The notes: a model not told the origin generated them from the sequence alone. DNA of 64,000 bases from Thermoanaerobaculia bacterium (GCA_963816185.1 CAWFJJ010000025.1:192001-256000); one strand, 5' to 3'. Positions 944 through 18,783 are shown, counted from the stretch's first letter. Program-made: numbers and translations.

Positions 944-2161
944 TCAACGCGTCGGGTCCGTGACGCGCCCCAGGAAGAGGATCGCTCCTGTCGCGTCGTC
1001 ACGGATGAGGAACAGGAAGGGGTGGTCAGCCCGGAAGACGGGCTTCGACGGAGCGATCGAGGCCGGCACCATCACGACTCCCGTGGCTGCGGCGGCCTCC
1101 GTCCCTTCCTCGTTCACGTCGACGAAGGCTTTGTGGAATCCCTCGTCGATGAACAAGCCTCCCGGGGCGCTGCTCAGAGCTCCGAAGTCGGCTCGCCGCG
1201 GGTCGAACGCGTCGGTCATACCCATCGGGACGAGCACCTTCTTCAGCGTGAACCCGGCTTCCATCCGGAAGCGAGGCAGGAAGACTTCGACTGCCTGGAA
1301 AGCGCGGCCGGCCGACGAGATCCACTCCGTCAGGCGGCTTGCCGTGAGAGAGTCTTCGAGCGCGAGGAGCCCGTCGCTCTTCCTCGGCAGCAGAACGACG
1401 AGCGAAAGGTCATCTCCCTCGTACGGCAGCTCCAGAACCTGTGCTTCTTCCACCTCGAGATATCCCGCCTTCGGCGATCCGTGCATGAGAGGAACGGACG
1501 GGCGCTTGCCGTCCGCCGCGAGAAACGGGGCGTCGTGCGTCCCTTTCTTCTCGAACGGGACTTTCCATTTGCCCTTGAAATAGATCGCGTTCGCGAGGGT
1601 GAGACGGGTGCCGGAAGTCACCGAGCCCTTCGGGAGGAGGTCCTTGATCTTGTCCCGCGTCTTTCGCTCGACCCACCGGTTGATGACCCGGCGCGCCTCT
1701 TCCGGGGACTTCCGGTAGTCGACAGGCGTCGGCGCGGCGCCGTAGAAGTCCTTCAGGATCGTTTGGGCCCGCGGCAAGAGCGGCTCACCCGTCTGGGGCC
1801 AGAGCGAGTTCGCGATCGCGAGCTCGACCTTGCCTCCTGCCTGAACCACTGCGACGCGGCGGTCGAGATCGCGGAATCCCGACGGAACCTGGTCCGCCGC
1901 GGGGAAGTGAAGCGTCTTCGCCATTTGACGAGCCGTCTCCCCGCGCGCGCCGGCGTAGGCCATCGCGAACGCCTCAGAGATGCTGAACGGAGAGAAGAAG
2001 ACGTTCGGGCCTTCGCCGCGGACGCGCCGGTACAGCTCCAGCGCGAACTCGGTGCTTCCGGGAACGAGAGGGTTCCTTTCCGCCCGAGGCGGCGCGGTCC
2101 GGGCGGGTTGTGCGAGAAGAAGCGAGGTCAGGGCGAGCGCGACGCCGCGAGTCATCGCCAT
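944..2161 (-). CDS. Secreted serpin (serine protease inhibitor)
   Basis: C-terminal part of the artefactual 1759-aa ORF: [21 protein letters not shown], hinge [10 protein letters not shown] and [13 protein letters not shown]. Signal peptide present. ATG 2161 overlaps the lhr TGA (TGATG). Confidence 0.93.
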
Positions 2162-5100
2162 CACGCCACGCGCAGCTGCTGCCGCATCGCCGGGGCAACC
2201 CTCTCCTCGGGCGTGAGGATTCCCTGGAAGTTCAGGGGATCGGCCGCCGAGACGAGGACGGGCGGAAGGTCCCCGCCCTGATTCATGCGTTTTCGGACGG
2301 CTCTGAGCAGCGCGACGGCTTCGGGCAGCGCGTACTGTTCGCCGTCGAATCCGGCGACGAAGCGTCCGCCGCGCACCTCGCCGCGAGCTTCCAGCGTGCG
2401 CAGGAAACGCGCGACGTCGCGGAAGGGGACCGGCTGCTTCTCTCTCGCGAGCGTCTTGCGGAAGACGACGCCGGTGCGCTGAAGGAGGCGGCGGGCCACG
2501 AACTCGGCCGACGGGGGAGACGGCGCCTCGCGCGAGAGGAGGCTCCAGCGGCCGGTCGAAAGGACGGCGGTTTTTCTTTTCGACGCGGGGACGATCAGCC
2601 ACCTCAGGCCGCCGAACGAGTCGCACGTCGCGCGCCCGAGGGCGATCAGCTCGCTCAGGCCCTCCTCGACGAACGTCGGCGGCAGCTTCGTGGCGCGCGC
2701 GAGCTCCTGGAAGAACATCGCGCCTTTCCGGAGGAGCGCTTCCTGGACCTCCAGCGCCTTTCCGGAGGGCTCTCGCACAGGCATCTGCGCGGCGAGCGCG
2801 GACCACTCGTCCAGATCGCGCCGCTCGACGAGGCAGATCGGCGTGCGCCGCGTCGGACCCGGGGCGGCGCCCCAGAGCCGGCCCCACACGATCTCGCCCG
2901 AGAGCGTGAGCTGGTCCAGCCACTCGCGCTTGTAGGAGCGCACGCGTGCCGGAAGGACGCTGGCTTCCCATGCGGCGGCGGGGATCTCGAATCCGGCGAG
3001 CTGCGAGACGACCTGCCCGACGCCGCGCGGGCCGTCCAGGCGATGCTCGGGATCCGCGTGCTGCCAGCACGCGAGAAAGCGCAGGAACTGCGCGGCCGTG
3101 ACCGGCTCGATCTCCTTGCGCAGGCGGTCGATCGTGTAGCGGTGGATCCGGGCGAGGAGGCGCCGGTCGCACCAGCCCGCGCGTCCCGCGATGCGCGTGC
3201 GGAGGACGGCGCCCTCGGCCTCGAGCTGACGGAGCAGCGACTCGTCGGCGTCTTCGGCGAAGATCGGTCCGAGCGCTTCCAAGCGGCCCTTGAGCACCGT
3301 CTTCGGGTCGCGTGAGGCTTCCGCCGCGAACCAGCGGCCGTCCTCGAGCGTGACGCGGCCCGCCGCGGCGAGCTCGTCGAGCCATGCCTGCCACGGGCGG
3401 CCCTCCCCGGCTGTGACGTACCCGATCCAGAGGAGCGCCTCGTGAACCTCCTCCGCGTTCGAGGGCTGCGGCCACGCTTCTTCCTTGACGCGGTCGATCG
3501 CCTCGGGGTCGAGGATGCCGATCTCGTCCGCGGAGCGCGCGTCGAGGACGCGACGCGAGAAAACCGCCTGTGTGCGCCGCTCCTCGAGGGGTGCGTCGTC
3601 GAGGAACGTGTAGGGCTGCGAAGAGAGGATGCCCCGCGCAAACGCCGACGGTTCCACCGTGTCCACGGCGCGCCGCTCGATCGTCCCGTCCTTCAGGCCC
3701 CGCAGGACTTCCAGCAAGCCGTCGACGTCCATCGCCTCCGTGAGGCAATCCTCGATCGTCTGCGCCACGATCGGATGGTCCATCGGGATCTCGATCGGGC
3801 CGCCGGGCAGCGTCTCGGGACACGCGATGACCTGCGGGAACGCCGTGACGAGGAGGTCGTTCGCGCGCATCCGCTGCAGGTTCGCCGGCACCCTCTTGCC
3901 GTTCCGGGTGCGGTCGAGGAGCAGCGCGCGCTGCGCGTTCCACCGCCAGCGCGTCTCGAAGAGAGGCGACGCGAGGACGGCCTGGATGAGGACGTCGCTT
4001 CGCGGTGGCGGGATTCAGGTAGTCGAAGACCTCCGGGAGCTCGAAGCTGTGCTGCGGGCCGAGCGAAAGGACGATCGCCTCCTCGTTCGCAGCGGCCTGG
4101 AGCTCGAAGCCGAAGCCGACGCAGAAGCGCTTCCGGAGCGCAAGGCCCCACGCCTTGTTGATCTTCGAGCCGAACGGCGCATGGACGACGAGCTGCATGC
4201 CGCCGCTCTCGTCGAAGAAGCGCTCGAGGATGACGCGTTTCTGCGTCGGGACGGCTCCGAGGGCCTGCCTTCCGGCTTCGACATACTCGGCGATTTGGAC
4301 GGCGGCGCCTTCGGGCAAGGCGTCGCCGCATTCGAGACGGAGGAAGGAAGATTCTTGAGAAAGAGGAAGAAGAGATTTCTTAGAAAGGGAAGAGGGGGAG
4401 AGCGAGGGGGAGTCGGCGTGCCCCTCGACGCCGCGAGCACTGTCTGAGCGAAGCGAGTTTGCGAGCGAAGGAGAGGGGCATGCCGGCTCCTCCGAGCCCG
4501 CCTCTGTCTCTGCCTCGGCTACTCTTTCTCTAAGAATTCCGATCTCTTCCGCGAGCTCGCGTGTCCGGCCGGGCGCCTCGCCGAGCCAGAAGGGAAGCGA
4601 CGGAGGCTGGCCCTTCGCGTCCGCGACGCGGACGATGCCAGGCTCGATCCTCAGGACTCGCCACGAGGCGTTGCCGAGCTGGAAGATGTCGCCGCCGTTC
4701 GACTCGACGGCCCAGTCCTCGTTCACCGTGCCGACGAGCGTTCCCTCCGGCTCCAGCCGGACCTGGTAATCGGCCGTGTCGGGAATCGCGCCTCCGGACA
4801 TGAGCGCCGTGAGACGGGAGCGCTTCGTCCCCATGAGGCGGCCGTTCACGCCGTCGCGGTGCAGCAGCGCGCGCCGGCCTTCCGTGTGGAGGGCGACGAC
4901 GCGGTCGAACTCCTCGCGCGAGAGCTCCCGATACGGCCAGGCCTTCCTCACGAGGTCGAAGAGAGCGCGTTCCTCCCAGGCTTCGCCGGAAGAGGCCGCG
5001 ACGATCTGCTGCGCGAGGATGTCGAGCGGGCGCGGCGGCATCGGCGTCCGGTCGAGGACGGAACGGCGGATCGACGAGAGGAGGGCCGCCCCTTCGACGA

Positions 5101-6223
5101 GCTCGTCGAGCGTGAGAGGGAAGAGCCGTCCCTTCGGGATCTTCCTCAGGACGTGCCCGGCGCGGCCGACGCGCTGGAGAAACGTCGCGATCGATCGCGT
5201 CGCGCCGACCTGGATCGCAAGGTCCACGTCGCCGACGTCGATCCCGAGCTCCAGAGACGCCGTCGCGACGAGCGCGCGCAGGCTGCCCGCCTTCAGACGC
5301 TGCTCGGCGTCGAGGCGCCGCGCTTTCGAGAGGCTGCCGTGGTGGCTCGTGACGGCATCCTCGCCGAGGAGGCGAGTGAGCTGCGCCGAGATGCGCTCGG
5401 CCATCTTGCGCGTGTTCACGAAGACGAGCGTCGTCCGGTGCTCGCGCACGAGCTCTCCGATCCGCGCGTAGATCTCCTGCCACTGCTCGTGCGAGCAGAC
5501 GGTCGCGAGCGGAGACGGCGGGATCTCGATGCCGAGATCCAGCGTCCGGAACGTGCCTGAGTCGACGAGCGTGCAGGCGCGCCCTTCGCCGACGAGGAAC
5601 CGGCCGACCTCGTCGAGCGGCTTCTGTGTGGCCGAGAGGCCGACGCGCTGAAGGGGCCGGCCGGCGAGGTGCTCGAGACGTTCGAGCGAGAGCGCGAGAT
5701 GGCTGCCTCTCTTGTCGCGGATGAGCGCGTGGATCTCGTCGACGATGACCGTCGAAACCGTACGCAGCACTTTCCGGCCGCCCTCGCTCGTCAGGAGGAG
5801 ATAGAGCGACTCCGGCGTCGTCACGAGGATGTGCGGCGGCCGGCGGGTCATCGCCGTGCGTTCGGCGGAGGGCGTGTCGCCCGTCCGGACGAGAACGCGG
5901 ACTTCCGGAACAGCCGGGTCGAGCGCGCGGATCTCGGCGAGCGGCCCCTGGAGGTTCTTCTGGACGTCGTTCGAGAGCGCGCGCAGCGGCGAGACGTAGA
6001 GGATCTGCGTCTCGTCCTTCAGCGCGGACCCCTGGCGGATCAAGGCGTCGATCGCCGAGAGGAAGGCCGCGAGAGTCTTTCCCGAGCCGGTCGGAGCCGC
6101 GATGAGCGTGCTCCGGCCCTCGCGGATCGCCGGCCAGCCGTCGCGCTGCGGCGGTGTGGGCTCGCCGAGGCGGTCCTGGAACCACTTCTGGACGGCAGGA
6201 TGGAAGGGGGCGAGGAGAGACAT
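2161..6223 (-). CDS. lhr: Lhr-family ATP-dependent helicase (one apparent indel near 3997)
   Basis: [15 protein letters not shown] and QRVGRAGH motifs. After YLNPATAK the frame shifts into ORF 2161..3891, which supplies the Lhr C-terminus ([26 protein letters not shown]). Confidence 0.9.
4406..4493. repeat. Palindromic REP/RPE-like element, copy 1, in frame within lhr
   Basis: 21-bp inverted arms at 4406-4426 and 4473-4493 around core TGTCTGAGCGAAGCGAGTT (4441-4459). An inverted homolog lies at 16435-16526. Confidence 0.8.
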
Positions 6224-9265: not shown

Positions 9266-9619
9266 TCAGGTCGGCGGCTCGGCTCCCCGGACGCGTTCCT
9301 CCAGCCTCGTGCGGCCGGCCCCGAGCGCCTTCGAGAGCGCCTGTACCGCGGTGCGGGCGCGCAACGGGTCGCCGCACGTGAAGAGGTCCACCGCCGCCTC
9401 GCCGCGCTCGGGCCAGGTGTGGATCGTGAGGTGCGACTCGGAGATCACGACGACGCCGCTGACGCCCTGCGGGCTGAGGCGATGGATGTGGATGCCGAGC
9501 ACCTTCGCGCCCATCTCCCGGACGGCCTCGACGAGCAGCGTCTCGACGAGGACCGGGTCGTCGAGCGTGGCGAACGGCGCGCCCGCGACGTCGAGGAGGA
9601 AGTGGAGGCCGAGACTCAT
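9266..9619 (-). CDS. speD: S-adenosylmethionine decarboxylase proenzyme (pyruvoyl, SpeD/SpeH type)
   Basis: C-terminal part of ORF 9266..10678, true start ATG 9619: GVSGVVVISESHLTIHTWPE...DLFTCG. Start overlaps the upstream stop (ATGA). Confidence 0.92.
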   Translation of the reverse strand: MSLGLHFLLDVAGAPFATLDDPVLVETLLVEAVREMGAKVLGIHIHRLSPQGVSGVVVISESHLTIHTWPERGEAAVDLFTCGDPLRARTAVQALSKALGAGRTRLEERVRGAEPPT

Positions 9620-10701
9620 CGGATTCCCAGCGCCTCGACTGTACCCCGGTTCTCGGGCCGCACCTTCCAGAGGAACGCGTCCCACACGTAATGCGTGGCC
9701 TGGGGAAGAGCGAGGAGAGGCACGATCAGGGCGAGAAGCAGTGCGCCGGGGTCGAGCGCGGGCCCCGGAAAGAGCGCGGCGTGGTCGTGCCAGACGAGAC
9801 GGTCCCAGCCCCATTCTTCGGCGAACGCGACGAGGAGAAGGGGCGCGAGGAAGAAGACGAGCTTCGGCGCCATCCGGTCCGCGAAGGACGGAGAGTCGCC
9901 CGCCTCGCGGCGCGCTTCGGCGCGCGATCTCGACGTGAACCACACGAGGCCCATGTACGGAATGCCGTGGACGAAGACGTTCGTCACCGTGAACGCGTAA
10001 TCCGAATCGAAGACGACGATGCCGAGGAACCACGTCGCGGCCGTCGAGAGGACGATCAGGACCTTCCCCCACGACACCGGCCGGCCGGCGCGCGCGCGCG
10101 CGACCTCCTTCACGATCCACGCGGCGAAGATCCCCGAATAGAGGACGAGCGCGACCGTGCTGACGGCCTCCGGCAGACCGTTCACGAAGTCTCCCCTCAG
10201 GAACCACTGGAACCGTCGCGGGAGGTGCGCGTGCCAGAAGAGGAGCGGCGTGAGCGTGGCGCCGTAGATGGCCGCGGCGTCGAGGAGACGTCCGTCCTTT
10301 CCCTCTTCGTTCTTCCGGCGGTAGAGAGCGACCCAGCCGTATTGCTGCCGCACGAAGTGGAAAACCGCGAGATACGCGAGGATCCGCCAGAAGAAGAGAG
10401 CCGAGACGGAATACGCCGCGACTCCCGCGACCCACGCCGCGATCGGGACGCCGACGTAGAGCGCGAGGCGCACCCGCGCGGCGCTCCCATCGGCGAGAAC
10501 GCGCCACCCGGTCGCCCACACGTGCGCGACGTCGACGCCCACGACCGCCACGAGGTACAGCCAGGGCGGGGCGTCGCCGTCGAGGAGGCCGGTCGCATGG
10601 CCGACGCCGAGGAAGAGCAGGGCGAGAGCCGTCGAGCCTCCGAAGAGGAGGAGGTCGGCGCGCCGGCCGAAGAGCCACGGGGAGGTCACGGGGCGTCCCA
10701 T
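9616..10701 (-). CDS. Polytopic membrane protein with four spaced His motifs, function unknown
   Basis: About 8-9 hydrophobic segments; DVAHVWAT, FHFVRQQYG, VHGIPY, THYVWD. Confidence 0.8.
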   Translation of the reverse strand: MGRPVTSPWLFGRRADLLLFGGSTALALLFLGVGHATGLLDGDAPPWLYLVAVVGVDVAHVWATGWRVLADGSAARVRLALYVGVPIAAWVAGVAAYSVSALFFWRILAYLAVFHFVRQQYGWVALYRRKNEEGKDGRLLDAAAIYGATLTPLLFWHAHLPRRFQWFLRGDFVNGLPEAVSTVALVLYSGIFAAWIVKEVARARAGRPVSWGKVLIVLSTAATWFLGIVVFDSDYAFTVTNVFVHGIPYMGLVWFTSRSRAEARREAGDSPSFADRMAPKLVFFLAPLLLVAFAEEWGWDRLVWHDHAALFPGPALDPGALLLALIVPLLALPQATHYVWDAFLWKVRPENRGTVEALGIR

Positions 10702-10702
10702 C

Positions 10703-12376
10703 TCAGCCCGCGGCCAGGGTCGCGACGCGCTCGCCGCGCGAGGCCAGAATCGCCTCGGCGGCCCGCACGCCGGCGTCCTGCGCCTCCTCGAAAAGCGGAA
10801 GCCCGCCGGAGTCGGTATTCGCGAAATGAACTCCGCCCACCGGCGCGAGATGCCGGACCTCGCTCGAAAGAAATCCCGGCGTCGGGCGCGGCATCGCGTG
10901 GCCCCAGCGGACGACGTCGAGGCGCGTGACGAGATTCGGCAGGTCGCGGTGCGCGATCGAAAGGTCCGCGAGAGCGGCCGACGCGAGGTCGTCCCACGAC
11001 GCGGCGAGAAGCTTTGCGCGCGCGGCGGCCGGGGGCTCGTCCGTGAAAGGCAGGTAATACGTGAAGACGGTCGGCCCGTACTCCGGGCCGGTCTGATGCG
11101 TCGCGACGACGTAGCCGAGCGAGCGCGAGTCGTGGAGCACGTTGTCCCACGCGAGGGGAAAACCCGTCTCCTTCGGCCGCGACCGGAGCGTGAGGTTCGC
11201 GACGAGCCACGGCGCCCAGGACATCTCCTCGAGAAAGGCAGGCGGGGCCGCGCGCCACGGGGCGAGGACCCGCGCGGCCACGAATTTCGGCAGCGCGAGG
11301 ATCGCGTGCGCGGCCTCGACCGCGACGACTTCGTCGCGGGCCGCGTCCAGGACGCGCAACCGGACCGGCGAGCCCGGCTTCGGCGCCGGCACGACGTCGA
11401 ACACGAGGGAGGAGGCCGCGAGGCGTCCCGCGACGCTCTTCGCGAGGAGAGCGACGAGGCGGCCGTTCCCTTCCGGCCACGTCAGGAAGTCGGACGGGTC
11501 CTCGTCGTCGCCCTCTCCGGGGAGGCGCGCCGCGTTGTAGTGGACGCCCGCCCACGCAGAGGTGTGGTCGAGGTTCGAGCCGAAGTCGTCGCGGCACCCG
11601 TATTCCGTGAGCCAGAGAAGGCGCGGCGACGTGTAGCCGTGCGCGCGCATCCAGTCGGCCATCGTGATGCGGTCGAGCCCCGTGAACTCGGGGTCGTCCG
11701 ACGAGAGGCGCGTCGGGATCGCGAAGGCGCGCCGGCCTTTCGAGTCCTTTCGGGCGGCGAGGGCGTTCATCTCGAGGTTGAACCGCGCGAGCTGCACGAG
11801 GTCTTCCGGCGAAGCGCCGTCGCGCGGATAAAGGCCCGGACGCCACGCGTATCCGAAGAACAGCCGTTCCTCGGGCTCGCGGCACAGCATCTCCTCGGCC
11901 CACTCGGGCGCGCCGTTCGCGTCCCGTGAGACGAGCGCGCCGGCCTCCTCGAGGATGGCCTCGAGCGCGCGGTTCGGCGAGGCGGGAACGGGCACGTAAT
12001 GGGCGCCCCATGGAAACGCGGACACGTCGTTCGAACCCGAGAGGGCGGTGCCTCCGGCCGCGTCCTCGAGATCGAAGACGCGGAAATCCGTGTCGCCGGC
12101 ACGGGCGAGCCGCCATGCGGCGGAGAGACCCGACACGCCCGCGCCCACGATCGCCGTGCCGACGCGCTCCGTGCGGACGGCGGGGCGGGACAGGAGATCC
12201 CCCGCGCGAAGGAGGTGCCCCCGCGCGACCTCCGGGCCCACGATCCTCCCGCCGAAGGGAAGGCCCCGGGCGTTCTTCTTCCCGCACGCCGTCAGGGCGG
12301 CGGCGAATGCCGAAAGCGCGGGAAGGCCCACGAGCGACGCGATCGCGTCGCGCCGGCTCAGTCGAAGCGCTTCCAT
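10703..12376 (-). CDS. FAD-dependent amine-oxidase-like oxidoreductase with Tat/lipoprotein signal
   Basis: ATG 12376. SRRDAI twin-arginine, hydrophobic stretch, LTAC lipobox; IVGAGVSGL dinucleotide motif; FPWGAHY; RWGHAM; LPLFEEA. Confidence 0.87.
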   Translation of the reverse strand: MEALRLSRRDAIASLVGLPALSAFAAALTACGKKNARGLPFGGRIVGPEVARGHLLRAGDLLSRPAVRTERVGTAIVGAGVSGLSAAWRLARAGDTDFRVFDLEDAAGGTALSGSNDVSAFPWGAHYVPVPASPNRALEAILEEAGALVSRDANGAPEWAEEMLCREPEERLFFGYAWRPGLYPRDGASPEDLVQLARFNLEMNALAARKDSKGRRAFAIPTRLSSDDPEFTGLDRITMADWMRAHGYTSPRLLWLTEYGCRDDFGSNLDHTSAWAGVHYNAARLPGEGDDEDPSDFLTWPEGNGRLVALLAKSVAGRLAASSLVFDVVPAPKPGSPVRLRVLDAARDEVVAVEAAHAILALPKFVAARVLAPWRAAPPAFLEEMSWAPWLVANLTLRSRPKETGFPLAWDNVLHDSRSLGYVVATHQTGPEYGPTVFTYYLPFTDEPPAAARAKLLAASWDDLASAALADLSIAHRDLPNLVTRLDVVRWGHAMPRPTPGFLSSEVRHLAPVGGVHFANTDSGGLPLFEEAQDAGVRAAEAILASRGERVATLAAG

Positions 12377-13902
12377 TCTCCCTCGTAGGTCCTCACGAGG
12401 ACCTGGTCGTTTAGCCGGTTCACGGGGACGTCGTCGATACGCGCCACGTCGGGCCCGAAGACGAAGAGCGACGGGAGAGTCTCTTTCGAAAGCGCTCGCA
12501 GGCCTTCGGGCAGGCGCGTCCCGAGATTCACGGTCGTCGCGGACGCGAGGACGAATCCCCACTCCCCGAACGACGGCACGGCGATGTGATACGGCCGCGT
12601 CGAAAAGCCGGCGGCCCTGAGCGTCGCGTCCACGATCCAGAAGCTGCGGCGCGCGAAGAGGGGAGACGTGGACTGCACGACGACGACCCCGTCGGGATCG
12701 AGCTTCTTCTTCACGAGCGAATAGAACCGCGAGGTATAGAGCTTGCCTACGGCATAGCTGTTGGGGTCGGGAAAATCGACCACGATGATGTCGAAGAGAT
12801 CGGGCTCCTTCTCGATCCAGATCATCGCGTCCTCGTTCACGATCCTGACCTTCGGCGATCTCAGAGAGCCGCCGTTCAGGGCGAGGAAGAGAGGATGCGT
12901 CGTCGCGAGAAGCGTCATCGCGGGGTCGAGCTCCACGAGCGTGACGCTCTCGACCTCGGGGTGCTTCAGGATCTCGCGGACGGCGAGGCCGTCCCCGCCC
13001 CCGAGCACGGCGATGCGCCGGGCACGCGGCGCGGCCGCGAATGCGGGGTGTACGAGCGCCTCGTGGTACCGGTACTCGTCCACGGACGAGAACTGGAGGT
13101 GCCCGTTCAGGAAGAGCTGGAAGCCGGCGCGGTTTCGCGTCACGACGATGCGCTGGTACGGAGTCGTCCGGGCCACGACGACTTCGTCGGCGTACTGGTT
13201 CTCCTCGGCGACGGCCGTGAGGCGATCCGCGACGACGAAGGCGGCGAGGAGGATCGCCGTGACGAGTCCCGCCTTTGCGAGAAGGCCGCCCGGCGGCCCG
13301 ATCCGGTCCCGGAAGAGCCGGATCGACCAGAACGCGACGGCCGCGTTGAGAAGGCCGAAGAGAACCGACGTGCGCGTGAGCCCGAGATGCGGAAGGAAGA
13401 CGAGCGGAAAGAGGATCGAAGCCGCGAGCGCGCCGAGGTAATCGAACGTGAGGACCTGCGCCACGAGGTCGCGGAAGACGACCGTGTCCTTGAGGAGGCG
13501 CATGAGGAGCGGAATCTCGAGGCCGACGAGCGTCCCGATCCCGACGACGACGCCGTAGAAGACGGGCGGGAACCAGCGCGGCGACGAGAAGGCGAAGAAG
13601 AGCATCGGCGCGGAGAGGCCGCCGAGGAGCGCGACGCCGATCTCGGTCTCCACGAATCGCCGCGCGACCCCGCGCACGACGAAGCGGGAGAGAAACGCGC
13701 CGAGGCCGAGAGCCGTGAGGTAGATCCCGATGACGAGGGAGAACTGCGTGACCGAGTCGCCGAGGAGATAGCTCGCGAGAGCTCCGGCGACGAGCTCGTA
13801 GACGAGACCGCACGACGCGATCGCGAGGACCGTGAGGTAGACGGGTCCCGGCCGGAGGGCGGGCACCGCCTCAGGGGCGGCGCTTCCCTCTCGGTCGCCC
13901 AT
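12358..13902 (-). CDS. Membrane-fused polyamine aminopropyltransferase (spermidine synthase-like)
   Basis: Seven N-terminal hydrophobic segments, then LQFSSVDEYRYHEALVHP, LGGGDG, VELDP and DFPDP. Confidence 0.92.
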   Translation of the reverse strand: MGDREGSAAPEAVPALRPGPVYLTVLAIASCGLVYELVAGALASYLLGDSVTQFSLVIGIYLTALGLGAFLSRFVVRGVARRFVETEIGVALLGGLSAPMLFFAFSSPRWFPPVFYGVVVGIGTLVGLEIPLLMRLLKDTVVFRDLVAQVLTFDYLGALAASILFPLVFLPHLGLTRTSVLFGLLNAAVAFWSIRLFRDRIGPPGGLLAKAGLVTAILLAAFVVADRLTAVAEENQYADEVVVARTTPYQRIVVTRNRAGFQLFLNGHLQFSSVDEYRYHEALVHPAFAAAPRARRIAVLGGGDGLAVREILKHPEVESVTLVELDPAMTLLATTHPLFLALNGGSLRSPKVRIVNEDAMIWIEKEPDLFDIIVVDFPDPNSYAVGKLYTSRFYSLVKKKLDPDGVVVVQSTSPLFARRSFWIVDATLRAAGFSTRPYHIAVPSFGEWGFVLASATTVNLGTRLPEGLRALSKETLPSLFVFGPDVARIDDVPVNRLNDQVLVRTYEGEWKRFD

Positions 13903-13906
13903 ACCG

Positions 13907-14131
13907 TCAGCCTCCCGAGACGGAGGCCGCGATGATGATCGCCATCGCGATCACGATCGACCCGATCACGATCCCGAGCGCCGTGTTCTGGTCCTCCTCC
14001 ATCTCCTTCTTCAGCGAGAAGGGCAGGAGCTTCGGCAGGATCGCGAAGAAGATGCCGAACAGGACCATCCCCAGAACCGAGAAGATCACGGTCGACTCCA
14101 CTTGATGCCCGTGCTGCGCCCACCATTCCAT
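13907..14131 (-). CDS. DUF350 small membrane protein
   Basis: ATG 14131 overlaps the upstream TAA. Two TM segments; KKEMEEDQNTALGIVIGSIVIAMAIIIAAS. Confidence 0.87.
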   Translation of the reverse strand: MEWWAQHGHQVESTVIFSVLGMVLFGIFFAILPKLLPFSLKKEMEEDQNTALGIVIGSIVIAMAIIIAASVSGG

Positions 14132-14298
14132 TACTTGCCTCCGCTCCAGAAGTGCCACGTCCGGTAGCCGCCCGCGTTGCGGGCTCCCGAAGGCAGCGTG
14201 TTGCGTTTCGTATTTCCCGCCATCTCCCAGCCCGAGAACGCCGCGAGAGAGTACGCGAGGAGAAGCGCGCCGCCGAAGACCTGGAAGATGCGTCTCAT
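14131..14298 (-). CDS. 55-aa membrane-anchored or secreted peptide ending in GGK (absent from the ORF track)
   Basis: SD AAGGAGG, ATG 14298, MRRIFQVFGGALLLAYSLAAFSGWEMAGNTKRNTLPSGARNAGGYRTWHFWSGGK*. The TAA overlaps the DUF350 ATG and the ORF fills the operon gap exactly. Confidence 0.85.
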   Translation of the reverse strand: MRRIFQVFGGALLLAYSLAAFSGWEMAGNTKRNTLPSGARNAGGYRTWHFWSGGK

Positions 14299-14308
14299 CG
14301 GGCCTCCT

Positions 14309-16396
14309 TCATTCGTCGTCCGAGTCCCGTTCCCCGCCGGCGCTCGTGAAGTCGCTGTCGGCCCAGCGCCGGCCCTCGAACGCGATCCTCCTGAACGCGA
14401 GCAGCGCCGGAACCAGAAAGAGCAGGAGGATCACAAAAACGAGATGCGAGACGTGCGGGACGCCGCTCGTGAGCTTCACGCGGAACGAGGGCGGCGCCTT
14501 CCCGGCGTCGGACTCGGGCTCGAGGCGCAGGACCCAGCGCCCGGCGGGAATGCGCGGTACGTAGATGCGGCGGCTCTGGCTGCCTTCGCTCCAGCTCTCG
14601 CCGCCGTCGACACCCGAATACTTGTCCGAGATCAGGTCGAACGAGAGGACCTCGCCGGTGGCCTCGGAGATGAGGTCGAACCCGACCTGGACCCAGGTGT
14701 TGTTCGTGGGCGCCCAGAGGTCCACGGCGAGATTCGCGCCTCGCTTCGTCTCGAACGGCTCCGAGAGGAGGACGCGAGTGGCCGAGAGCGCGGCTTCCGC
14801 GGCCGCACGCGCCGCGATAGGGTTCGCCGGGGCCTGGCTCGGGGTCGGGGCCGCGCCGCCCTGCGACCAGTCGGCCGAGGCCGGGCTCGGGCTGCTGTCG
14901 CGCGCGACGTAGATCACGCGCTGCGGGTCCGTGAGGTCGAACGTCCGGTCGTAGACGACGGCGTGCGGCGTGAGCAGCTTCGCGAGGAAGAAGACGACGA
15001 TCGAGGCAAGTGAAAGGAGCCAGGCGGTTTTCCACCAGAGATGGCTCGTCTCGGCGTGCGGCCACGGCTGGCAGGCACCGACGCCCTGGGGCGGCGGAAG
15101 CGGCACCTTCAGCGCGAAGCCCGCGGCGGTCTCCTCGGGAGGGACGTACGCGCCCTCGGTCCACGCGATCTCTTTCTTCGCCTTCTCCTTCGAGAGCATG
15201 CGCGGCGGCTTGACGTAGTCCGTGGCCTCGGTGGTCTCGCCGGTCTTGACGGCCCAGTAGAACTCGCCGAGGACGCCGGCGACGCGCGCCTTGCTGCGCG
15301 AGAAAATGCGATACGAGTTGCCTCGGAAGACCGCCACACGAGTTCCGTCCTTGACCTCGCCCGCGGGCACGGGCTCGAGGAGCGTGTAATGGCCGTTCGA
15401 TTCCGCGAGCCAGTGGTAAGCCTCGGACTTTTCCTCCTTCAGGAGGTACTCCGTCCAGAAGTAGTCCTCGCCGCCCGAGGAGGTCGTCTTCTGGAGGGCG
15501 CCGAGGATCGCGTACTTGTGGTCACGGAGCGTGCCCTCGGCCCCGAGCGGGAGCGCCGCCTTGAACGGCACGGCCGCGAGCTTCTCGAGGACCGTGAACT
15601 TGGAGGGCGGGCCTTGCTCCTTCCGGTCTGCCGAGCCGAGCAGCGAGCCGCAGAACGGGCAGGCGATGCGCACCGTGTTCGCGGGGTCCCTGAGCTGGAG
15701 GGCGCCGCCGCAGCTCGGGCAGTTCAGGGCGAGAGCCTTGACGGAGACCGTGCGGTCGGACCATGCGACGAGCTCCGCGATGCCGAGGCTCGCGAGCGCG
15801 ACCGGCTTGCCCACGTAGAAGCCGTCGAGGCCGGGCCCGTCGCCGTAGTCGAGCGTCGCGAGGCTGCCGTCCGTTCCGGAAAGGTCGGCATACCTGAAGA
15901 TGGAGCCCGGCGGGGCCGCGAACGGCAGCTCGCCTTCGGCGGAGGCGTATGTCGCCTCCCGGGCCTCGACGATGGCGAAGCTTCCGTAGGCTCCCAGGTC
16001 GAGCGTTTCACCGGGCTGGAGCTGCTCGAACGCCGGCACCTGCGGAGGCTTGACCGGCGTCATGAGCCAGAATCCACCCTGCGCTTCGGCGAGCCATCCC
16101 CAGGTTCCGTCGCCATATCCGACGTACCACTCGTCCCACGTCCCCTCGCCGGTCGAGAGCTGGAGACGCCCGGCGATGTGGAACGGGCGCGTGCCCTTTT
16201 GCGGGCGCGCGTCCATCCCCAGCTTGAACGGGGAGGACGTCGGGACGAGCTCGGCGACCGTTCCGATGGCCTCGAGGTCCGCGCCCTTGCGCGCGACGGC
16301 GGACTTGCATTGCGGACAGATCGAGACGAGCGAAGCCCCTGTCTGAAACCGAACGGGACCCCCGCAGTTCGGACATTGGGCCGCGCGCGCGCTCAA
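14309..16396 (-). CDS. DUF4178-like membrane protein with two Zn-ribbons
   Basis: CPNCG..CPQC and CPSCG..CPFC, each followed by a DUF4178-like unit (WDEWY..WLAE..GELPF; WTEYL..WLAE..GEFYW). Two TM segments flank a soluble domain; tail FEGRRWADSDF. TTG start. Confidence 0.82.
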   Translation of the reverse strand: MSARAAQCPNCGGPVRFQTGASLVSICPQCKSAVARKGADLEAIGTVAELVPTSSPFKLGMDARPQKGTRPFHIAGRLQLSTGEGTWDEWYVGYGDGTWGWLAEAQGGFWLMTPVKPPQVPAFEQLQPGETLDLGAYGSFAIVEAREATYASAEGELPFAAPPGSIFRYADLSGTDGSLATLDYGDGPGLDGFYVGKPVALASLGIAELVAWSDRTVSVKALALNCPSCGGALQLRDPANTVRIACPFCGSLLGSADRKEQGPPSKFTVLEKLAAVPFKAALPLGAEGTLRDHKYAILGALQKTTSSGGEDYFWTEYLLKEEKSEAYHWLAESNGHYTLLEPVPAGEVKDGTRVAVFRGNSYRIFSRSKARVAGVLGEFYWAVKTGETTEATDYVKPPRMLSKEKAKKEIAWTEGAYVPPEETAAGFALKVPLPPPQGVGACQPWPHAETSHLWWKTAWLLSLASIVVFFLAKLLTPHAVVYDRTFDLTDPQRVIYVARDSSPSPASADWSQGGAAPTPSQAPANPIAARAAAEAALSATRVLLSEPFETKRGANLAVDLWAPTNNTWVQVGFDLISEATGEVLSFDLISDKYSGVDGGESWSEGSQSRRIYVPRIPAGRWVLRLEPESDAGKAPPSFRVKLTSGVPHVSHLVFVILLLFLVPALLAFRRIAFEGRRWADSDFTSAGGERDSDDE

Positions 16397-16539: not shown

Positions 16540-18783
16540 TCAGGCTCCGGCCCGGTGCTCGGGGTAGAGGCGCTCGAACTCGGGGTCGCCGTGCAGGAAG
16601 GCGAGATCGGGGTCGCGGCGGGCCCAGTCCGGGTCCTTGAAGCCGGCGTTCCAGGCCTTCCGGAGCGCTTCCAGAGCCTCGGGTTTGTTCTCGAGGCCGC
16701 AAAACACACATGCGACGTTGTAAAGAACAGTCGCGTCGTTCGGGCGCAAGGCGATTGCGAGGTTCGCCTCCCGCGTCGCATCGTCACGCCGATCCAGGGA
16801 GGCGTAGTTGGCTGCGAGGAGAACGCGCGCGCGTGCATCCTCGGGAACCGATTTCAGGTGATTCTCCAGCGCCAGGACTGTGCGCTGGCGGACGTTGCGG
16901 AGCGTTTCATCCTTCCCGAGCGCGCCGAGGGCGTTCAGGATCGGGACGTAGACGTTGTAGTCCTGTCCGCTCGCCTCCATGGCCGCGTCCGCGGCGTTTG
17001 CAAGATCCTGATAACGCCCTGAGGCGAAGAGCACGCGGCCGAGGACGTAGTACGCCCCCTCGCAGTCGCTCTTGCGCTCGATGGCCTGGCGCACGCAGCT
17101 CGCCGCCGCGTCGTACTGGCTTTCGGCGTACAGGATCCAGGCCTGGGCGACGAGAGCCTCGGGAAGCTGCGGGCTCAGCGCGACCGCTTTCCGGGAGGCT
17201 GCCAGCGCCCGTTCCAGCCAGACGGGATCGCGTCCGTAGTGATAATGGGTCTGCGCGCAGACGTTCGCGATGGCGGCGTGGGCCAGCGCGAAATCCGGGT
17301 CCAAGGCCGTCGCGTTCTCGAACATCTGGAGGGCGAACTCGAAGTCCTGCCGCGTGAGACGCCGCGCGTAGCTCTTGCCGCGGAGAAAAAGGTCGTACGC
17401 CTGGAGGTTCTCGGTCGGCTTGGCGGCGAGGGCCGCCTCCTCCTGCGGCGAGAGCGTGATCCGGAGGGCTTCGGCGATCTTGCGCGCGATCTCGTCCTGC
17501 ACCTCGAATACGTCCTGCATCTCGCGGTCGTACCGCTCGGACCAGAGAGGGAAGTCGGTGTGCGTGTCGACGAGCTGCGCGTTGATCCGCAGCCGGTTTC
17601 CGGACCGGCGCAGGCTCCCCGCGAGGACGAATGCCGCGTTGAGCTGCTGTCCGATCTGCGCGGGCGTCACCTGCTTGTCGCGATAGGCGAGGACCGTGGG
17701 TCGCGAAAAGATGTTCAAGCCCTTGATTTTCGAGAGCTCCGTGATGATGTCCTCGGTGATGCCGTCGCGGAAATACTCGTCCTCCTTCACGCCGGAGAGG
17801 TTCTCGAAGTAGAGGACGGCGATGGACTTCTCGGCTTGCCGGGTTCCGCCCCCGCGCGAGTCGCTCTTCTCGGCCGCGCGCTTCTTGCCCGAATCCATGT
17901 CGCGCTTCAGGCGCGTGAGATCCGTCTTCAGGTCCGTGGCGGTCTGGTAGCGCAGGTTGCGGTCCTTCTCGAGCGCCTTGTCGAGGATGCGCCCGAGCTC
18001 GGGTGGAAGAGCGGAGTTCAGCTGAGCGACCGGGAGCGGATCCCGGTTCAGGATCGCGTCGAAGATGACCGCGGAGGTCTCGCCCGGGAAGGGCAGCGTG
18101 CCCGTCGCCATCTGGTAAAGGACCGTCCCGAGCGAGAAGAGGTCCGTGCGGGCGTCGGCGAGCTGCCCGCGCGCCTGCTCGGGAGACATGTAAGACACGG
18201 TGCCCATCGACGTTCCGGGCGTCGTGAGGTCGTGCTGTGCGCCGACGGTCTCCAGGAGGGAGACGGCGCCGTCCGCTCCCCGGCGCGCTCCCTCGATCCG
18301 GGCGAGGCCGAAGTCCAGGATCTTCACCTGCCCCCGCGCGTTCACGAAGATGTTCGCCGGCTTGACGTCCCGGTGCACGATGCCGCGGGCGTGCGCCGAC
18401 TCGAGGGCGTCGGCGATCTGGATGCCCAGGGCGAGCAGGTTCTCCGGGTCGAATGGCGGATGCCCCGTCATCATCTGTGCGAGCGTCTGGCCTTCGAGGA
18501 GCTCCATGACGATGAAGTGCTGCCTCTCGTGCTCCTCGATGGCGAAGACCGTGCAGATCCCCGGATGGTTCAAAGCCGAGGCGGCACGCGCCTCGCGCTG
18601 GAAGCGCTCGAGCGACGGCGTGTCCTGGGCGAGCTCGGGAGGCAGGAACTTGAGCGCGACGCGGCGGCCGAGGCGTGAGTCCTCCGCTTCGTACACGACG
18701 CCCATCCCGCCGCTTCCGAGACGGCGCACGACCGTGTAATGGGAAATACTCTTCCCGATCAGGGGATCCGTGGGACTGGACAC
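16540..18783 (-). CDS. Hanks-type Ser/Thr kinase with TolB-N-like and TPR domains
   Basis: LGSGGMGVVY, VALK, HRDVKPAN, DFG, YMSPE; SIAVLYFEN..DGITEDI; TPR helices; no TM segment. Confidence 0.93.
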   Translation of the reverse strand: MSSPTDPLIGKSISHYTVVRRLGSGGMGVVYEAEDSRLGRRVALKFLPPELAQDTPSLERFQREARAASALNHPGICTVFAIEEHERQHFIVMELLEGQTLAQMMTGHPPFDPENLLALGIQIADALESAHARGIVHRDVKPANIFVNARGQVKILDFGLARIEGARRGADGAVSLLETVGAQHDLTTPGTSMGTVSYMSPEQARGQLADARTDLFSLGTVLYQMATGTLPFPGETSAVIFDAILNRDPLPVAQLNSALPPELGRILDKALEKDRNLRYQTATDLKTDLTRLKRDMDSGKKRAAEKSDSRGGGTRQAEKSIAVLYFENLSGVKEDEYFRDGITEDIITELSKIKGLNIFSRPTVLAYRDKQVTPAQIGQQLNAAFVLAGSLRRSGNRLRINAQLVDTHTDFPLWSERYDREMQDVFEVQDEIARKIAEALRITLSPQEEAALAAKPTENLQAYDLFLRGKSYARRLTRQDFEFALQMFENATALDPDFALAHAAIANVCAQTHYHYGRDPVWLERALAASRKAVALSPQLPEALVAQAWILYAESQYDAAASCVRQAIERKSDCEGAYYVLGRVLFASGRYQDLANAADAAMEASGQDYNVYVPILNALGALGKDETLRNVRQRTVLALENHLKSVPEDARARVLLAANYASLDRRDDATREANLAIALRPNDATVLYNVACVFCGLENKPEALEALRKAWNAGFKDPDWARRDPDLAFLHGDPEFERLYPEHRAGA

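Follow-up and report, generated by a model that had tools for sequence, protein, structure and literature searches.

Why would a bacterium place a SAM decarboxylase and an aminopropyltransferase, the enzymes of ordinary spermidine synthesis, in an operon whose other products are predicted to sit in or beyond the membrane? The question arises from positions 9,266–16,396 of the window analysed here, a 64,000-nucleotide stretch of a Thermoanaerobaculia genome (GCA_963816185.1, CAWFJJ010000025.1:192001-256000), where open reading frames define seven tightly packed genes, all on the minus strand. The locus is close to certain to belong to the DUF4178/DUF350/7TM-aminopropyltransferase kind of operon, and it preserves intact a widespread operon type already published from comparative genomics. 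What we add is a Lys-ended micro-ORF that tracks DUF4178, a SpeE topology derived from charge bias, and a family of His-rich membrane proteins. We propose, at a probability of about 0.5, that the operon encodes an envelope module that would aminopropylate an envelope acceptor other than putrescine and then oxidise the product in the periplasm.

Gene arrangement and its recurrence across phyla

Transcription would run from the DUF4178 gene through those for a microprotein, a DUF350 protein, a membrane-fused SpeE, an FAD oxidoreductase and a His-rich membrane protein to speD. A 10-nt gap separates the DUF4178 and microprotein genes, the microprotein stop and DUF350 start overlap by 1 nt in TAATG, and 4 nt lie between DUF350 and the 7TM-SpeE gene. 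The latter overlaps the oxidoreductase gene by 19 nt, the largest overlap in the operon; a 1-nt gap leads to the His-rich protein gene, which overlaps speD by 4 nt (ATGA, with the speD start on the preceding stop). No terminator-like site was found on the minus strand inside the operon, which is flanked by genes for a Ser/Thr kinase-TPR protein and a beta-carbonic anhydrase. The earlier note described seven co-oriented genes with gaps or overlaps of at most 10 nt; the orientation and the gaps hold, but one overlap reaches 19 nt. Its count of six membrane-bound or exported products among the seven agrees with our sequence-based predictions, SpeD alone having no signal.

The arrangement recurs widely. 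Among 80 speE loci searched by tblastn (E<=1e-3; many contigs end early), the oxidase is found in 66, DUF4178 in 63, SpeD in 48 and DUF350 in 41. Core genes lie beside speE in Acidobacteriota, Myxococcota, Gemmatimonadota, Planctomycetota, Betaproteobacteria and others, and the order of the adjacent, co-oriented DUF350 and DUF4178 genes is repeated in other phyla. Judged by this recurrence the arrangement is far from chance, and the co-occurrence that the earlier note had made a check on membrane-fused SpeE is that of a conserved unit in several phyla. The Ser/Thr kinase neighbour is adjacent in just 9 of the 80 loci, at varying positions. As a separate observation, a Band-7-like gene, recognised from N-terminal sequences alone, heads the Bryobacterales and betaproteobacterial versions of the operon.

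The transferase, the oxidase and their partners

The 7TM-SpeE protein (12,358–13,902; 514 aa) joins a seven-helix membrane domain (residues ~18–223) to a Spermine_synth catalytic domain (~240–460; 123.8 bits in Pfam). It scores 650 bits against the NCBIfam family PRK03612 (cut-off 472) and merely 43 bits against the NCBIfam 'fused MFS/spermidine synthase', and we therefore assign it to the seven-helix branch. Its AlphaFold2 model (pLDDT 91.6) has seven helices ahead of the catalytic domain, and seven hydrophobic segments are likewise present across 72 SpeE sequences. Since DSSP reads residues 143–196 of the model as a single unbroken helix, helices 5 and 6 are counted from hydropathy, no hairpin being seen there. 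Invariant in the 72 sequences are, in the catalytic domain, G301–G305 (GGGDG), D326, D358 and D376-F-P-D379-P (P380), and in the membrane domain E36, D49, E129, R135, D154 and N186. We take GGGDG, the acidic residue after strand 2 (D326) and DxxDP to be the motifs for decarboxylated SAM (dcSAM) binding and catalysis. Among solved structures, the protein's closest relatives are polyamine, thermospermine and spermidine synthases, and we know of no biochemical test of the seven-helix branch.

The loops of the membrane domain differ strongly in charge. Across the 72 sequences, Lys/Arg counts per loop are 3.1, 3.7 and 2.9 on one side and 0, 0.8 and 1.6 on the other, giving 10.3 for the N-terminal side (N-terminus and loops 2–3, 4–5 and 6–7) against 2.4 opposite, and the flank following helix 7 is net acidic. 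The positive-inside rule, the sole basis used here, predicts that the catalytic domain lies outside the cytoplasm. Because dcSAM is made in the cytoplasm, a transferase facing outwards needs an export step. To our knowledge nobody has shown such a step and no dcSAM exporter has been described, nor do we know of any SAM-dependent enzyme with a demonstrated periplasmic activity.

The presumed source of dcSAM is SpeD (9,266–9,619; 117 aa), a soluble class 1b protein matching PF02675 (AdoMet_dc) at 116.9 bits and TIGR03330 at 120.6 bits (cut-off 75.65). By position, its S62, H67 and C82 match S63, H68 and C83 of the T. maritima enzyme as given in the relevant part of PMC10407285. According to the same part of that source, neofunctionalised decarboxylases also keep the processing and catalytic Ser, His and Cys (PMC10407285), so their presence is no proof of the substrate; the link with a SpeE-type partner speaks for SAM.

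The FAD oxidoreductase (10,703–12,376; 557 aa) belongs to the flavin amine-oxidase family. Its N-terminus, MEALRLSRRDAIASLVGLPALSAFAAALTAC, combines a twin-arginine motif (SRRDAI) with a lipobox (LTAC), making it a Tat-signal lipoprotein that is predicted to be exported. Among its relatives, loose patterns find a twin-arginine signal in 51 of 57 and a lipobox-like one in 11 of 57; on visual inspection, most have [ST]RRxF followed by a hydrophobic stretch, and do so across phyla. The protein matches Amino_oxidase (PF01593) at 36.4 bits (cut-off 19.8; residues 81–544) and NAD_binding_8 (PF13450) at 44.3 bits, and its best PDB sequence match (E 0.003) covers the FAD-binding motif only, at residues ~59–150. 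Given this modest Pfam match, and a likeness to solved oxidases confined to the FAD-binding motif, the assignment as an amine oxidase is weak.

In 39 of 67 loci, as here, the gene that immediately follows the oxidase encodes a His-rich membrane protein (9,616–10,701; 361 aa). Its model (pLDDT 95.6) comprises 10 long helices. An 89-sequence alignment of the family gives D57, H60, H115, Q119, H157, H245, Y249, Q334, H337 and D341 as invariant and E295 and E296 as nearly so; the protein had been labelled a 4-His protein, a label that the five invariant His of the family replace. It falls in no Pfam or NCBIfam family, and a Foldseek search of its model against the PDB found no fold match (best E 0.39, TM<=0.26). 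Nonetheless the unnamed family that it represents is large: 4221 of 8000 scored candidates are relatives, and the cluster representatives number 1019.

At the other end of the operon, the DUF4178 protein (14,309–16,396; 695 aa, TTG start) matches Pfam DUF4178 in two stretches (97.8 bits), with zinc-ribbon families below their Pfam cut-off at residues 3–36 and 225–256; no match was found among PDB sequences. Two units of Cys4 zinc ribbon and DUF4178, predicted to be cytoplasmic, are followed by a transmembrane segment, a domain of ~170 aa and a second transmembrane segment, the two hydrophobic segments lying near the C-terminus. The protein ends in an FEGRRWADSD motif and an acidic tail, and at other loci the C-terminal transmembrane segment, an FExxRWxESD motif and the acidic tail recur. 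The DUF350 (YjfL-type) protein (13,907–14,131; 74 aa) matches PF03994 at 48.3 bits and has two hydrophobic segments.

A microprotein ending in lysine

Between the DUF4178 and DUF350 genes lies an overlooked reading frame for a 55-residue microprotein (14,131–14,298), preceded by GAAGGAGG. It consists of a basic N-terminus, a hydrophobic segment of ~17 residues and a basic tail whose last residues are GGK, and has no match in Pfam or NCBIfam. A microprotein occurs in 62 of the 74 eligible speE loci, exactly the 62 that have DUF4178; the remaining 12 have neither, so the SpeE family can work without them. At the 62 loci the chain ends in -GK (54) or -HK (8), the terminal Lys persisting even when the residue before it is H in place of G. 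Copies found by tblastn end in GK in 33 of 33 cases. A wider search gave 2145 protein clusters, all unnamed, with a GGK end in each of the best 120. In a phylum sample of 201 genomes, a 7TM-SpeE scores over the cut-off in 31, of which 23 have an adjacent microprotein, and among the other 170 it occurs in 3, one of which has speE split over two contigs; the non-carriers counted include G145, an unpublished genome. The earlier note's co-encoded peptide is thus real, co-occurring perfectly with DUF4178 and carrying a terminal Lys in every copy.

The tail is probably outside the cytoplasm: compared with the 15 residues that follow the hydrophobic segment, the N-terminal flank carries more positive charge in 30 of 54 microproteins, as much in 22 and less in 2. 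Its whole length is strongly basic (mean net +3.8), a property that would fit equally with a tail lying in the cytoplasm and pairing there with the acidic tail of the DUF4178 protein. Among the SpeE alignment columns, none was found to track the GK/HK difference. We regard the microprotein as a testable candidate for what the transferase modifies.

What the operon may do, and how it compares with known systems

In the mechanism that we favour, cytoplasmic SpeD would, from its family membership, make decarboxylated SAM, and the 7TM-fused transferase would hand the aminopropyl group on to an acceptor that is not free putrescine. The enzyme's catalytic domain would face the periplasm, as the charge bias suggests, and the invariant acidic residues of the membrane domain could pass the cationic donor or acceptor. 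The best single candidate for that acceptor would be the epsilon-amine of the microprotein's invariant C-terminal Lys, a choice that, taken alone, is possible but rather doubtful. The Tat-exported flavoprotein would then oxidise the amine so formed, whether secondary or primary, in the periplasm; the five-His protein, where present, might be its metal- or haem-bearing partner (a guess from adjacency), and DUF4178 and DUF350 may scaffold or regulate the complex. This reading draws on the tight packing, the cross-phylum core, the invariant motifs, the charge bias, the oxidase Tat signals and the Lys-ended microprotein. The earlier note, which had also proposed envelope aminopropylation and oxidation, is upheld as to the conserved unit, the twin-arginine signals, a catalytic domain placed outside by charge bias and the Lys-ended microprotein. 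Its further argument, that a putrescine or agmatine supply gene is missing, is true of the operon but fails at the genome level, where speA (851 bits), an agmatine-deiminase-family gene (aguA) and an arginase-fold gene lie elsewhere.

These supply genes matter because SpeD is the genome's only AdoMet_dc match and SpeE its only strong Spermine_synth gene: the operon could simply be the cell's spermidine route, and ordinary synthesis is a real rival. A membrane-anchored SpeE facing the cytoplasm would then use putrescine or agmatine to make spermidine or a polyamine that is longer or branched, its membrane domain would export or localise the product, and the periplasmic flavoprotein would degrade or back-convert the exported polyamine. 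The canonical dcSAM and catalytic motifs, the identity of the closest solved relatives, the NCBIfam name 'polyamine aminopropyltransferase' for a family whose cut-off SpeE exceeds, and the supply genes themselves are all consistent with this, and nspC was not found in the genome, which is 94.9% complete. Against it, the Lys/Arg bias sets the catalytic domain outside, and plain synthesis does not account for the obligate link to an exported oxidase, to DUF4178 and DUF350, and to a microprotein with a Lys tail. Moreover, related membrane-fused SpdSyn-like proteins studied by Li et al. in 2019 reportedly failed to complement an E. coli speE mutant and came from hosts without spermidine. We consider this alternative unlikely.

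Other readings keep the reaction at the membrane and change its target or purpose. The acceptor could be a lipid amine, for instance phosphatidylethanolamine, an ornithine lipid or an aminohopanoid, which the 7TM domain would bind and the oxidase turn over, with the microprotein just a structural subunit. Conservation of the membrane domain indeed equals that of the catalytic one, and its helices contain invariant polar and acidic residues; the Band-7-like gene comes first in the Bryobacterales and betaproteobacterial versions, and the wider operon family is tied to PspA and Band-7 membrane-stress proteins in the part of Ravi et al. (2024, PMC11237479) that deals with it. Yet the operon holds no lipid-synthesis or lipid-binding gene and the invariant terminal Lys would go unexplained, which makes a lipid target improbable. 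Still less probable is a sensing or regulatory module that tracks polyamines or envelope charge and remodels the membrane, transferase and oxidase setting a local signal rather than a bulk product. PspA-linked systems have been proposed, in the same part of that paper, to monitor polyamine concentration or aminopropylation (Ravi et al. 2024, PMC11237479), and the DUF4178 protein crosses the membrane, its zinc-ribbon part being cytoplasmic and a further domain lying outside; however, the operon contains no output domain or regulator, PspA is encoded on another contig, and the kinase neighbour is inconstant.

Envelope aminopropylation of a microprotein would have partial analogies elsewhere. In deoxyhypusine synthesis an aminoalkyl group is attached to a lysine side chain of eIF5A, and in the LysW amino-group carrier the terminal residue of a small protein carries the growing metabolite; the carrier logic may be alike, although the enzymes are unrelated and both systems are cytoplasmic. 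Closer are the clusters that Li, Kurihara, Kim, Liang and Michael are said to have described in Biochem J in 2019, in which an AdoMetDC, a membrane-protein/SpdSyn-like fusion and DUF350 are joined. They reportedly share with the present operon the link of a class 1b SpeD to a membrane-fused SpdSyn-like protein and DUF350, as well as the idea that the acceptor is not putrescine, but their fusions are reported to be of the MFS type, whereas ours is of the seven-helix branch. A mycobacterial operon, presumably Rv2597–Rv2601 in gene numbering, is also related. It is named by protein accessions, in the portion of Ravi et al. (2024, PMC11237479) that describes it, as DUF4178/DUF2617/DUF4247/DUF350/membrane SpeE; by that description DUF4178, DUF350 and the membrane-fused SpeE keep their order, and DUF2617 and DUF4247 replace SpeD and the oxidase.

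The closest match is the published operon type itself. The relevant passages of Ravi et al. (2024, mSystems, PMC11237479) describe DUF4178/DUF350 (YjfL)/7TM-spermine-synthase operons whose PspA-less variants carry an AdoMet decarboxylase together with a polyamine oxidase, bearing out the neighbourhoods, sometimes with PspA, that the earlier note had mentioned. They raise 'aminopropylation of other substrates' for the same gene sets and name no specific substrate (PMC11237479). Against that description, our operon is alike in the Spermine_synth-7TM fusion, the adjacent co-oriented DUF350 and DUF4178 genes, SpeD and the oxidase; it differs in lacking, within the operon and its flanking genes, the PspA-CesT/Tir pair and a Band-7/SHOCT gene (the genome's sole PspA match being the one on the other contig), and in having the five-His membrane protein in addition. 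In Pseudomonas aeruginosa, SpeE2 of the SpeD2/SpeE2 pair (PA4773/PA4774) is a 349-aa protein identified as a thermospermine synthase acting on free polyamines, and the part of PMC11107197 that covers the pair speaks of neither a membrane domain nor an oxidase, a DUF4178 or DUF350 protein, or a microprotein. The two systems nevertheless share a class 1b AdoMetDC beside an atypical aminopropyltransferase, and the same account ties SpeD2/SpeE2 to surface-associated polyamine (PMC11107197).

Organization and distribution of the operon

The seven co-oriented genes described in the earlier note form a tight operon at positions 9266–16396 on the minus strand, and their coordinates, junctions and five of the seven family assignments bear out that description. 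From upstream to downstream, the operon encodes a DUF4178 protein (14309–16396; 695 aa), a 55-aa microprotein that ends in GGK and has GAAGGAGG just before it (14131–14298), a DUF350 protein (13907–14131; 74 aa), the 7TM-fused aminopropyltransferase SpeE (12358–13902; 514 aa), an FAD oxidoreductase (10703–12376; 557 aa), a membrane protein with five invariant His residues (9616–10701; 361 aa), and SpeD (9266–9619; 117 aa). Successive genes are separated by gaps of 10, 4 and 1 nt or overlap by 1, 19 and 4 nt, and no terminator-like site was found on the minus strand within 9266–16396. Pfam and NCBIfam bear out the assignments of five products, all with scores above the curated cut-offs, and the microprotein and the five-His protein match no family in either collection. 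In two soil metatranscriptome runs from a single study, contigs 92–99% alike span 27 of 30 bins, but because they come from relatives and RNA libraries may hold DNA, they do not establish transcription of this operon.

We fetched 80 loci by their SpeE protein (54–94% identical), which span Acidobacteriota, Myxococcota, Gemmatimonadota, Planctomycetota, Betaproteobacteria, Verrucomicrobiota, Elusimicrobiota and others. When the window proteins were compared with these loci by tblastn (E ≤ 1e-3), matches were found to the FAD oxidase in 66, DUF4178 in 63, SpeD in 48, DUF350 in 41, the microprotein in 13 and the five-His protein in 9, counts to be read with the fact that many contigs end early and that short membrane proteins are hard to detect by tblastn. 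Gene order and strand are nearly always kept among the matches. A 7TM-SpeE above the PRK03612 cut-off is present in 31 of 201 genomes sampled from the phylum, with one unpublished genome (G145) counted as a non-carrier. In operons of Bryobacterales and Betaproteobacteria (L027:6319–7326, L082:6521–7555 and L076:6725–7756), the first gene encodes a protein of about 340 aa with the N-terminus MxxxxKQFIDVIxW, which, judged from this N-terminus, resembles the SPFH/Band-7-type partner reported in Ravi et al. 2024.

A β-carbonic anhydrase gene lies 27 nt downstream, and was left out of the module because only 2 of the 80 related loci match it by tblastn. A Ser/Thr protein kinase gene with C-terminal TPR repeats (16540–18783, minus strand) lies 143 nt upstream; it is probably unrelated to the operon, since it matches in only 9 of the 80 loci and at varying places. 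Farther downstream, a single 1759-aa frame (944–6223, minus strand) reads as a DEAD/DEAH helicase at the start and as a serpin at the end with an Arg-rich stretch between, and probably represents two or more genes that a wrong but open frame joins in GC-rich DNA.

The GGK microprotein

The microprotein is a real gene. With permissive tblastn, 33 loci yielded a copy upstream of speE, in every case an open frame with GK as its last two residues. At least 1000 nt of sequence precede speE in 74 loci, and in 54 of these there is an open frame of 35 codons or more with a GK end; across all 607 frames in these upstream stretches GK is the commonest ending (56), followed by RR (22). Eight more loci carry the same kind of small protein with an HK end. 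The 62 loci that carry the microprotein coincide one for one with those that match DUF4178, and the remaining 12 lack both. A profile search returned 2145 microprotein-like clusters, all unnamed, with a GGK end in each of the best 120. The invariant G-K in our microprotein alignment is a consequence of row choice, and independent support for the terminal Lys comes from the 33 tblastn copies, the eight HK loci and those best 120 of the 2145 clusters. At the genome level, the microprotein lies a few hundred bases from speE in 23 of the 31 SpeE-positive genomes and occurs in only 3 of the 170 others, one of which has speE split over two contigs; we give no P-value because related genomes are not independent.

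Family members share one or two N-terminal Lys/Arg residues, about 17 hydrophobic residues, often GW, a PxSxRxNPGxYR-like middle and the terminal Lys. In 30 of 54 sequences, positive charge is greater on the N-flank than in the 15 residues that follow the hydrophobic segment, and in 2 it is smaller, a charge bias that modestly favours a tail outside the membrane; the strongly basic character of the entire tail (+3.8) would, however, also suit the opposite orientation. GK and HK tails gave no covariation signal against SpeE columns in what is a weak test, and only one variable SpeE column (436) separates the 8 HK from 57 GK loci. A micro-ORF filter (hydrophobic N-terminus, polar tail) caught mostly the part of the DUF4178 gene that encodes its C-terminus and was dropped as a count. 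In the closest relative (L008:9607–9771; SpeE 94% identical), the C-terminal half up to GGK is kept and the N-terminal half is out of frame, owing to an indel in the assembly or because the copy is broken.

The C-terminus of the DUF4178 protein (14309–14420) has a transmembrane segment, a conserved F-E-x-x-R-W-x-E-S-D motif and an Asp/Glu run, found at the same position in loci L003–L082. A cytoplasmic location is predicted for this acidic tail, which is accompanied by the basic-tailed microprotein in 62 of 62 loci; the two may pair if the tail of the microprotein lies inside.

Predicted membrane topology, the oxidase and the five-His protein

Across 72 SpeE sequences, the mean number of Lys and Arg residues is 0.6 at the N-terminus and 0, 3.1, 0.8, 3.7, 1.6 and 2.9 in loops 1-2, 2-3, 3-4, 4-5, 5-6 and 6-7, and helix 7 is followed by a net acidic stretch. 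The SpeE model has seven helices, the number also given for the SpeE-like protein by Ravi et al. 2024 (PMC11237479). This loop bias and the helix count together predict that the N-terminus is inside and the catalytic domain outside. DSSP assigns residues 143–196 to a single helix; we infer the 5/6 hairpin from hydropathy and a conserved P-x-x-G-L-x-R turn. SpeD carries no signal, and if the transferase is outside, decarboxylated SAM (dcSAM) has to cross the membrane. The only clue to its route is a hint from four invariant acidic residues in the membrane domain (E36, D49, E129 and D154). A search for SpeE fusions gave five proteins of about 1000 aa joining SpeE to the oxidase, in which SpeE similarity is lost and Arg-rich stretches precede the oxidase frame; we read them as frameshift artefacts of overlapping genes, and hence as silent on topology.

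At the N-terminus of the oxidase, SRRDAI is followed by a hydrophobic stretch and LTAC, and relatives in several phyla have similar [ST]RRxF signals ahead of the FAD motif. For the five-His protein, 4221 relatives among 8000 scored candidates, and 1019 cluster representatives, include none with a Pfam domain or a name. Twelve residues are invariant in an 89-sequence alignment (D57, H60, W105, Y110, H115, Q119, H157, H245, Y249, Q334, H337 and D341), and charge bias, with both termini inside, places most of them in the outer half or middle of the bilayer. The predicted model (pLDDT 95.6) has 10 long helices; Foldseek gave no PDB match (best E 0.39), a profile search of PDB sequences gave none, and the ESM Atlas yielded unnamed clusters only. 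We considered a CPBP/Rce1-like protease and a di-haem cytochrome b as assignments and dropped both, since neither Pfam nor the fold search gave a match and none of the helices carries two invariant His residues. Among 67 five-His loci with enough upstream sequence, the oxidase gene ends within 400 nt upstream in 39, lies anywhere in the flank in 50, and was not found in 17; we take the five-His protein as a frequent but optional oxidase partner. Three acidobacterial loci (L096, L097 and L122) have the five-His gene directly followed by speD, with no match to speE, the oxidase or DUF4178 in the flanking sequence covered, a hint that the two may cooperate outside the complete operon. Two long relatives (P0148 and P0161) have an M1 peptidase (aminopeptidase) or LptD domain after the five-His part, and may be real fusions or merged gene calls.

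Possible functions and relation to known operons

We favour aminopropyl transfer to an envelope acceptor other than putrescine followed by periplasmic oxidation, with a probability of about 0.5. Within this reading, the microprotein Lys is a tentative choice of acceptor, less likely than not. A separate reading, with a lipid acceptor, is distinctly unlikely. As a joint proposal, which we hold to be improbable as a whole, a dcSAM-dependent enzyme would act at the outer face of the cytoplasmic membrane: its conserved acidic seven-helix domain would pass cytoplasmic dcSAM, or the aminopropyl group, to the periplasmic catalytic domain, which would grow an aminopropyl (polyamine-like) chain on the C-terminal Lys of an exported microprotein dedicated to this role. 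Oxidation of the chain by the Tat-exported flavoprotein together with the five-His protein would then yield a released product or a reactive aldehyde for cross-linking. If so, polyamine chemistry would take place on a carrier peptide, outside the cytoplasm; with the terminal Lys as acceptor, the protein modification would be new, and might be the first case of SAM-derived chemistry at the membrane's outer face.

Ordinary polyamine synthesis is a rather doubtful explanation but a serious rival. The earlier note had argued against it from missing precursor genes, an argument that fails at the genome level: genes for a biosynthetic arginine decarboxylase (851 bits), an agmatine-deiminase-family protein and an arginase-fold protein are present in the 5.09-Mb host genome (94.9% complete), so plain spermidine synthesis has to be taken seriously. 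The genome's sole AdoMet_dc gene and sole strong Spermine_synth gene both lie inside the operon; a second SpdSyn-like gene is weak, and nspC was not found in this assembly. If the enzyme makes free spermidine, the operon would simply be how this organism produces its polyamines, by an unusually arranged route. The least probable of the readings is a role in sensing or regulation.

What thousands of SpeD genes do in their pairing with membrane-fused spermidine-synthase-like proteins has reportedly been an open question since the 2019 work of Li and colleagues. The literature searched contained no functional study of DUF4178, DUF350 or the mycobacterial genes Rv2597/Rv2600/Rv2601. The earlier interpretation, although unproven, stands as a reasonable hypothesis on an operon of a known, still unsolved kind. 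The comparative genomics study of Ravi et al. 2024 (PMC11237479) describes operons of a 7TM-fused spermine/spermidine-synthase-like protein, DUF350, DUF4178 and a lipoprotein ('Ctha_1186'), with variants that carry AdoMet decarboxylase as well as polyamine oxidase, and suggests polyamine monitoring or 'aminopropylation of other substrates', citing Li et al. 2019. Set beside these, the window holds no new kind of system; it provides a clean, complete copy of the operon with an accessory five-His membrane protein.
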